Origin: a virus | IMG/VR virus record: IMGVR_UViG_3300033146_002768 | Span: 34,305-98,304 of that record | Length of the DNA stretch: 64,000 nt | Reading direction: 5' to 3' (one strand) | In this document: one piece after another, positions 21,628-22,382 of the stretch | Position numbering within the stretch: the stretch's first letter is position 1 | How the letters are laid out: each line of letters starts with the position of its first letter | Translations under genes and position numbers: made by a program | Notes under the pieces: generated by a model | Databases searched by the model: none | Seen by the model: the letters and a program-made list of their open reading frames with translations, nothing else | Told to the model about the DNA's origin: nothing

Positions 21628-21882
21628 ATGACAAATATTAATGTTAGTTGTAAACATTGTGACGGAACTGGTATAACTAAGAACCCACAAAAAATGTTTG
21701 ATGAAAAAGGAGCATTTAGATTAACTACTCAATTATGTCTTAAATGTCATGGAGAGGGTGAACTTGATTGGGTTGAAAATGTAGTAGGTAAAAAGAGTCG
21801 TAGTGATTTATTCTTAAAAGCAATGGAACATCCAACAACTCATATAAAGGAAAAAATTTATGGAGGAACTAAAGAAACATGA
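21628..21882 (+). CDS. Small DnaJ-type CxxCxGxG zinc-finger protein, paralog 1 of 3
   Basis: CKHCDGTG ... CLKCHGEGELDWVENVVGKK. TTGGAGG RBS. The ORF-track start at 21586 lies inside the terminator hairpin. Confidence 0.5.
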   Translation: MTNINVSCKHCDGTGITKNPQKMFDEKGAFRLTTQLCLKCHGEGELDWVENVVGKKSRSDLFLKAMEHPTTHIKEKIYGGTKET

Positions 21883-22120
21883 AGTTATATGTGAAAAATG
21901 TAAAGGTAGAGGTAAAATATCAACTCCAATAAATCCAAATCATTTATATGGATATAACTATTCAATAGATGAGGAATGTACTAAATGTTGTGGAGACGGA
22001 AAACTTGATTGGATTGAAAATGTTGTTGGAAAAAGAAAAATAAATAAATTTCATATGAATACGATGTATGGTTCATTTATTAAAAAGAATCATAGTTTAA
22101 TAACTGTGACATCAGCATGA
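21860..22120 (+). CDS. Small CxxCxGxG zinc-finger protein, paralog 2 of 3
   Basis: CEKCKGRGKIS ... CTKCCGDGKLDWIENVVGKRK. Confidence 0.5.
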   Translation: MEELKKHEVICEKCKGRGKISTPINPNHLYGYNYSIDEECTKCCGDGKLDWIENVVGKRKINKFHMNTMYGSFIKKNHSLITVTSA

Positions 22121-22382
22121 AGAAAGGTATTGTCAAGTGTAGTCGGTGTAAGGGCACAGGAAAAATTAAAAAAAAGATAAATACACCATGGTCAATTTTA
22201 AGCATATTAAATTTCAAATGGATGCTGAATGTCCTAAATGTTATGGAGAGGGTGAACTTGATTGGGTTGAAAATGTAGTAGGTAAAAGAAAATCAATTAG
22301 GAGAATATATTTTGCTGGTGGTTCAACTATAAAATTTCCAGCAAATGTTATATTAAAATTGTCTGGAGGAAAGAAAAAATAA
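22117..22382 (+). pseudogene. Third CxxCxGxG paralog, split across two frames at an A8 homopolymer (22168-22175)
   Basis: Frame 1 (start 22117) encodes MKKGIVKCSRCKGTGKIKKK. Frame 0 (start 22188) encodes ...ECPKCYGEGELDWVENVVGKRK. One extra A would fuse them with the paralog-typical spacing of about 30 aa. Confidence 0.5.

Follow-up and report, generated by a model that had tools for sequence, protein, structure and literature searches.

Why does the third of three tandem zinc-knuckle genes in this viral DNA change reading frame at a run of eight adenines, and does that break mark an error, a decaying gene or a switch? The question concerns a short gene array within a 64,000-nucleotide stretch of DNA, referred to here as the window. 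The original prediction described three tandem paralogs of about 85 aa, each with two CxxCxGxG knuckles followed by LDW(I/V)ENVVGK, and both the sequence and the list of open reading frames bear this out, with copies 1 and 2 intact as proposed (84 aa and 86 aa). The array and its two flanks are laid out as follows.

20814 to 21578, + strand: upstream flanking gene, 254 aa, conserved; 5' boundary of the variable array
21628 to 21882, + strand: copy 1, intact, 84 aa; two CxxCxGxG knuckles and LDWVENVVGK, with the SD GGAGG upstream
21860 to 22120, + strand: copy 2, intact, 86 aa; JGI calls the same protein on the 207,111-bp source contig
22117 to 22175, + strand: 5' half of copy 3, frame 1, with the first zinc knuckle, MKKGIVKCSRCKGTGKIKKK
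22168 to 22175, + strand: A8 homopolymer, the frame-change site in copy 3
22176 to 22382, + strand: 3' half of copy 3, frame 0, with the linker, the second knuckle CPKCYGEGELDWVENVVGK and the C-terminal tail (whole copy 3 span 22117-22382)
22382 to 23107, + strand: downstream flanking gene, 241 aa, conserved, with a PHROG match (phrog_21037); 3' boundary of the array

The start codon of copy 3 (ATG at 22117) overlaps the stop of copy 2 as ATGA, and its own stop overlaps the start of the next gene as TAATG. Read without a shift, the 5' frame continues to a stop at 22276-22278 and gives a 53-aa product with one knuckle and an out-of-frame tail. In frame 0 a TAA occupies 22167-22169 and the frame is open from 22170 onward; the remainder of copy 3 in this frame reads DKYTMVNFKHIKFQMDAECPKCYGEGELDWVENVVGKRKS...GGKKK and ends at 22382. 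The proposal that the two knuckle halves lie in different frames and switch at the A8 run is upheld by the open reading frames and by homology on both sides. The 5' half is homologous to the N-termini of the L014, L009, L008 and L022 orthologs, and homology to intact orthologs stops and starts on either side of the run, so that the frame change must fall within about 22170-22180. The 3' half is open for 69 codons (empirical P of about 0.005 against off-frames of the 30% GC window) and the Pfam model DnaJ_CXXCXGXG matches all three copies (E 1e-6 to 1e-3; copy 1, E=1.2e-5); the split gene pattern is therefore beyond chance.

Adding one A to the run, as had been suggested, does restore a paralog-length protein of 88 aa that aligns with copies 1 and 2, with 20 positions invariant across the three, among them all 4 Cys pairs, the Gly residues and LDW-ENVVGK; its trans-frame peptide is KIKKKDKYTMVNFK and its junction peptide IKKKDKYTMVNFK. 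Removing two A's to leave A6 restores the frame equally well, however, and the single added A is thus one of two repairs. Measured from knuckle 1 (its second Gly codon) to the conserved ATGGT, the distance is 24 nt in 5/5 closest orthologs and 26 nt in the window, so the frame returns either by a gain of one nucleotide (A9, one extra Lys) or by a loss of two (A6, the ortholog spacing). The JGI annotation calls the reading frame from ATG 22188 as a separate 64-aa gene (P0001). We rejected the possibility that the halves are separate functional genes, given that each holds one knuckle, that ATG 22188 lacks an SD and that the halves are fused in every relative.

The intact members give a consistent picture of what was broken. 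With PF00684, copies 1 to 3 score 25.9, 19.5 and 29.0 bits, below the gathering threshold of 32.7, and each carries exactly two CxxCxGxG repeats, as against the four that form two zinc centres in PF00684; judged from these sequence profiles, the copies are related to the DnaJ central cysteine-rich domain and are not full members of it. The four Cys are invariant in the array alignment (75 family sequences), the Trp of LDW is invariant as well in a wider alignment (122 sequences), and in the latter the Gly residues of the second knuckle together with L, D, I, E and G of LDWIE-x-x-x-G are at least 90% conserved. The best PDB sequence-profile match is 1exk, the E. coli DnaJ cysteine-rich domain (E=2.7e-5), with anti-TRAP and lambda-type Q proteins as marginal matches, and NCBIfam returns weak DnaJ/RtpA matches only. 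A confident AlphaFold (AF2) model of copy 1 (pLDDT 84.7) predicts a beta-hairpin bearing both knuckles and, after it, short helices; Foldseek searches of PDB and BFVD gave no significant match to it, the best being the DnaJA2 CR domain, anti-TRAP and uncharacterised phage proteins, and PADLOC had no match for the family. Taken together, sequence and model describe the family as probable half-size derivatives of the DnaJ CR fold, with a single predicted zinc site and a family-specific C-terminal motif, and not as DnaJ proteins.

At least 340 small metagenomic proteins match the family profile, named, where a name is given, "DnaJ-class molecular chaperone" or "hypothetical protein", and no member was found in cultured-phage records. 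A scaffold that stays fixed while linker, tails and copy number vary suggests that family members act as protein-binding accessory factors. Beyond the limits of the window, the 207,111-bp source contig encodes a fourth member (P0056, 123 aa), whose core shares 52% identity with repaired copy 3. Elsewhere, at L039:~7440-7640, L043:~7720-7920 and L055:~3870-4070, a hydrophobic and probably transmembrane N-terminus is followed by a single CPKCxGxGWLDW(I/V)EQ(V/I)(V/T)GK knuckle. Since the LDWIE motif is kept in this one-knuckle, membrane-anchored architecture, it may be the functional core of the family.

The comparison with related genomes that the original prediction had called for was carried out on 23 related loci from IMG/VR and JGI/ENA metagenomes, anchored on the downstream flanking gene (22382-23107). 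Across related contigs the same two flanks enclose 0-9 copies of the family: close relatives (73-78% nt and 85-88% aa flank identity) have 2 to 9 tandem copies and distant ones (50% identity) none. The upstream flanking gene is 73-78% identical at the nucleotide level to its counterpart in L001-L023 and has no Pfam or PHROG match, and the downstream gene is 85-88% identical at the protein level in L001-L005 and L008-L014. Genes of the array overlap or abut, with successive genes in different frames.

A wider scan of 58 related loci plus the window found frame splits in only two cases, against 130 distinct intact copies, namely in copy 3 of the window and in one copy of L043 (L043:3093-3200) that lies within AACAACAGAAGAAGATAA, where there is no homopolymer. 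No close ortholog of copy 3 is split, and none of the 130 intact copies shows a split at a homopolymer. The closest relatives of repaired copy 3 are all single open reading frames (L009:151-432, L005:3562-3816, L004:3142-3414, L012:4370-4627, L014:4743-4988, L001:3739-3948, and those in L008 and L022). These orthologs carry A5-A7 at the same position of the gene, in frame, with A7 at nt 52 in L008 and L022.

Other arrays are damaged in other ways. One relative has an amber codon at the invariant Trp (TGG to TAG, L002:3637-3639), a second a TGA in a knuckle Gly codon together with a 1-nt deletion after DWIE (L050:3838-4030), and a third a truncated first-half remnant (L011:4321-4446), and L015, with two copies in its array, has none of the copy-3 type. 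These array lesions are sporadic, heterogeneous and lineage-specific and bear the signature of birth-and-death turnover, with a possible contribution from assembly error.

Such an error is the first alternative to be weighed for copy 3 itself. If the run was miscounted, the true sequence would be A9, copy 3 would be an intact 88-aa gene, and A8 would be a consensus error or a minority variant. Homopolymers are the classic context for indel errors, the 3' half has no other lesion, and a single contig carries the copy 3 sequence, all of which would fit a miscount. The rest of the window does not behave this way, however. Among the 12 other 8-nt A/T runs, at least 7 lie inside long open reading frames (193-1442 aa) and leave them unbroken, and of all 36 runs of at least 7 nt only the A8 of copy 3 breaks a recognisable gene, which argues against a systematic homopolymer error. 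Three overlapping pairs of open reading frames (3303-5879/5812-7005, 60291-61034/60997-61761 and 413-1561/1539-2522) were examined as further frameshift breaks, which would have pointed to a poor assembly, and rejected, as the two frames carry different domains where Pfam matches. An error of one nucleotide would also require a true A9, and hence a linker of 27 nt with one extra Lys, whereas 5/5 closest orthologs have 24 nt, and a contig of 207 kb would imply good coverage. We give a miscount a small but appreciable chance, and infer that A8 is the true genotype.

Runs of this kind are a feature of the family. In 74 family genes (18.9 kb) 35 other A-runs reach A7 or more, a density of about 1.85 per kb as compared with about 0.8 per kb in all fetched sequence (~2.3-fold), and the genes are rich in Lys-Lys codons; through both properties the family is intrinsically exposed to slippage mutations. 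All 35 of these runs are in frame, and one out-of-frame tract in about 36 is unremarkable. Over the 64 kb of the window (30% GC), the run counts are 89 for A6, 16 for A7, 8 for A8 and 0 for A9 or longer, with 5 for T8 and 0 for T9 or longer. The lack of any run of 9 nt or more may reflect selection against such tracts, an effect that is not clearly significant at these numbers.

The same enrichment in A7-A8 runs could be taken as a sign of homopolymer phase variation, in which the length of the run would fluctuate in the phage population and toggle copy 3 on and off, diversifying an accessory host-interaction gene in the manner of a contingency locus. An A7 at the same gene position in the L008 and L022 orthologs, an intact 3' half and a hypervariable array resembling an accessory or arms-race locus are consistent with this. 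Against it, the 35/35 in-frame record holds throughout the family, no second out-of-frame homopolymer occurs among the 130 copies, Lys-Lys codons at a genomic GC content of 30% account for the runs, and A8 is short for a high-rate switch. Phase variation is accordingly quite improbable at this site; were the run to prove heterogeneous in reads (A8/A9), the locus would be a candidate case of a phage accessory gene under homopolymer phase variation.

Programmed recoding was considered from the signals around the run. When codons were phased by hand, positions 22170-22176 proved to be A_AAA_AAG, the dnaX heptamer, in the X_XXY_YYZ phase of the 5' frame, a feature that the original prediction had left unremarked. 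The 5'-frame codons are ATT AAA AAA AAG, with AAA at 22171 and AAG at 22174 in the zero frame, and a -1 shift here yields exactly the repaired copy 3 protein. In the long open reading frames of the window, A_AAA_AAG occurs 4 times in the slippery phase versus 26 times in phase 0. This motif is among the most shift-prone in E. coli (PMC4066793), and viral RNA polymerases can be slippage-prone, T7 RNAP slipping readily (PMC6260861). A -1 ribosomal frameshift or transcriptional slippage could in principle set a ratio between the 53-aa and 88-aa products.

Other signals speak against such a programmed site. The RNA downstream of A8 shows no stem-loop or pseudoknot and is less structured than its shuffles (MFE of -8.6 kcal/mol for 22177-22260 versus -12.9 for shuffles, z +1.53; z +1.88 for 22140-22300), and an Rfam scan of 20000-24000 found no frameshift element, with sub-threshold mir-2 matches on the upstream hairpin only. 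SD-like AGGA and AAGGG lie 8 and 15 nt upstream of the shift site, where a dnaX-type internal SD would be expected at about 10-14 nt, and would favour recoding; they coincide with conserved Gly codons present in every copy. Slippery heptamers without stimulators reach only 2-10x a 0.055% background in E. coli (PMC4066793). Transcriptional slippage typically requires a conserved A/T run of at least 9 at the junction, and A8 is below that usual length; E. coli RNAP shows no detectable slippage on runs of fewer than 8 A (PMC6260861). The 53-aa product, with its one knuckle, cannot form a four-Cys site alone, and the shift site and two-frame architecture are conserved neither in the close orthologs, which are unsplit, nor in the 130 other copies. 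Ribosome sliding on poly(A) involves longer runs, of about 11-12 A, and was rejected for copy 3 on the shortness of A8.

A programmed recoding signal that fixes the ratio of the two products is thus very improbable. The in-phase heptamer keeps a low level of leaky -1 decoding plausible and is not evidence of programming; trace restoration of copy 3 by leakage is plausible in the same way, whereas a programmed, tuned event is unlikely. Taking phase variation together with slippage of the phage RNAP or the ribosome at A_AAA_AAG, the broader idea that the A-run is a functional switch making copy 3 expression conditional or low-level is improbable; if true, a homopolymer-tuned member would represent a contingency locus in an uncultured jumbo phage. 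Of the three options in the original prediction, pseudogenisation and homopolymer error remain viable, while programmed slippage or frameshifting is disfavoured by the one-frame orthologs, the lack of any homopolymer split in 130 copies and the unstructured downstream RNA.

We consider it somewhat probable, and more so than any alternative, that copy 3 carries a recent, non-programmed homopolymer indel that inactivates one dispensable paralog. Lys-rich linkers in an AT-rich genome would create A-runs, and replication slippage would have changed the length of this one, from A9 to A8 or from A6 to A8, throwing the second knuckle out of frame in a lineage-specific and non-programmed manner. Standard decoding would then give the 53-aa product, one knuckle with a nonsense tail, and a small fraction of ribosomes might still make the 88-aa protein at A_AAA_AAG, presumably of the order of 0.1-1% going by the E. 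coli data without stimulators. The frame of copy 3 is disrupted relative to intact orthologs and paralogs, as expected of a frameshift pseudogene, and further degenerative lesions are absent, the 3' half retaining all motif residues. With no secondary lesions there, the indel would be recent and copy 3, if a pseudogene, very young; its lesion would represent neutral decay. Some observations weigh against a decaying indel. The heptamer is in a phase that is rare elsewhere in the genes of the window, and a 3' half that is free of damage and was homogenised with copy 1 in the recent past would suit a gene still in use as well.

This homogenisation is visible as a tract shared by the two genes.

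22243 to 22287, + strand: conversion tract, 45 nt identical to 21749-21793 in copy 1; of copy-1 type (GEGELDWVENVVGK)

Around it, 56/60 nt are identical between copies 1 and 3, including the 45-nt perfect run; in a set of 166 within-locus paralog pairs, the next-longest such run reaches 23 nt. Elsewhere the proteins of copies 1 and 3 share about 41% identity. The GEGELDW signature common to both is typical of copy-1 orthologs. From the 45-nt identity and this copy-1-type signature, copy 3 appears to have recently received a conversion tract with copy 1 as the donor, and this apparent gene conversion implies that the arrays evolve by recombination as well as by slippage.

A second conserved element stands at the head of the array.

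21583 to 21618, + strand: conserved hairpin with a 12-bp stem and a conserved loop, GTATTAATTTAT, placed after the upstream gene's stop and ahead of the copy 1 SD

It is present in 14 loci (the window and 13 others, e.g. L002:3027-3060), and of the 12 predicted pairs 5 show compensatory double changes and 0 are broken. The hairpin is probably a terminator or regulatory element and could be an RNA-stability element; across the rest of the window its loop motif does not recur significantly.

The source of the array is an uncultured jumbo myovirus on a 207-kb contig. Products encoded in the window include split multisubunit RNAP beta/beta'-like proteins, tail sheath, baseplate protein, TerL, RtcB and FolE2, with the phage's own multisubunit RNA polymerase at 10987-16818. 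Megablast of 21000-23500 against INPHARED phages gave no match, and neither did tblastn of the downstream flanking gene and repaired copy 3 against the same collection, so that no cultured relative exists there at the DNA or protein level. The 64-aa 3' reading frame and copy 2 each occur once in a collection of 15 billion proteins, both on the 207,111-bp JGI contig, and exact look-ups of P0001 and copy 2 turned up no independent assembly. A pattern search of IMG/VR with GGCACAGGAAAAATT-N6-11-GATAAATACACC returned zero matches, a related-locus search with repaired copy 3 as a single protein returned no locus, and the metagenome scan yielded only relatives below 80% nt identity within the array.

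Two further features of the window were observed in passing. The adjacent large open reading frames 3303-5879 and 5812-7005 have weak, sub-threshold Pfam matches to Prok-E2_D and Prok-JAB (E about 2e-4 and 7e-4); in a jumbo phage, the two could form a pair for ubiquitin-like conjugation and its reversal. The phage also encodes two proteins of the radical-SAM class, a GTP cyclohydrolase of the FolE2 type and an RtcB RNA ligase (413-1561, 60997-61761, 17520-18365 and 23864-24997), a set that points to tRNA repair and to modification of the nucleotide or queuosine type.

Annotations should record copy 3 as a frameshifted paralog (possible pseudogene or assembly indel), and neither as two genes nor as a recoding site. 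The split itself adds one more case to a well-known class of events; the hypervariable array and the conserved upstream hairpin are the more interesting by-products. The locus illustrates how a large, uncharacterised family of small proteins, DnaJ-CR-like and marked by the LDWIENVVGK motif, evolves by birth and death; the family occupies a hypervariable slot of uncultured jumbo phages and is more worthy of follow-up than the frameshift. With 0-9 copies between fixed flanks, the array could represent a previously undescribed host-takeover or counter-defence family.

Set beside known systems, copy 3 resembles the E. coli dnaX -1 frameshift in having the identical heptamer in the same phase, at which a -1 shift joins the halves. 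The dnaX site is conserved and is flanked by an SD some 10 nt upstream and a strong stem-loop downstream, unlike that of copy 3, which is without structure and conservation and whose frameshift product would be the ancestral full-length protein and not an alternative isoform. Also comparable are "compensated" or leaky frameshift mutations at homopolymers, such as the A11 transcriptional slippage of Citrobacter tssM (PMC4256274) and the G-run "savior" indels of herpesvirus TK (PMC5009743), where a homopolymer indel likewise splits a gene into two undamaged halves and some full-length product can be regained through slippage at that run; those cases involve longer runs or demonstrated rescue and function, whereas copy 3 has A8 and its rescue is inferred. 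As a protein family, the copies share CxxCxGxG zinc knuckles with a beta-hairpin between them with the DnaJ/Hsp40 CR domain (PF00684; 1exk), but have 2 of its 4 knuckles, one predicted Zn site and no J-domain or C-terminal domains, and carry LDW(I/V)E-x-(V/I)-x-G-K directly after knuckle 2, followed by variable tails. Anti-TRAP (RtpA, PF15777) offers a parallel, since a DnaJ-type zinc knuckle forms the basis of this small, free-standing protein too; its sequence and fold similarity to the copies is weak. They differ from it in scoring 21 versus a cut-off of 65 bits (NCBIfam RtpA), in their motif set, and in being phage-encoded in tandem arrays outside any trp-operon context; anti-TRAP itself works by binding another protein.
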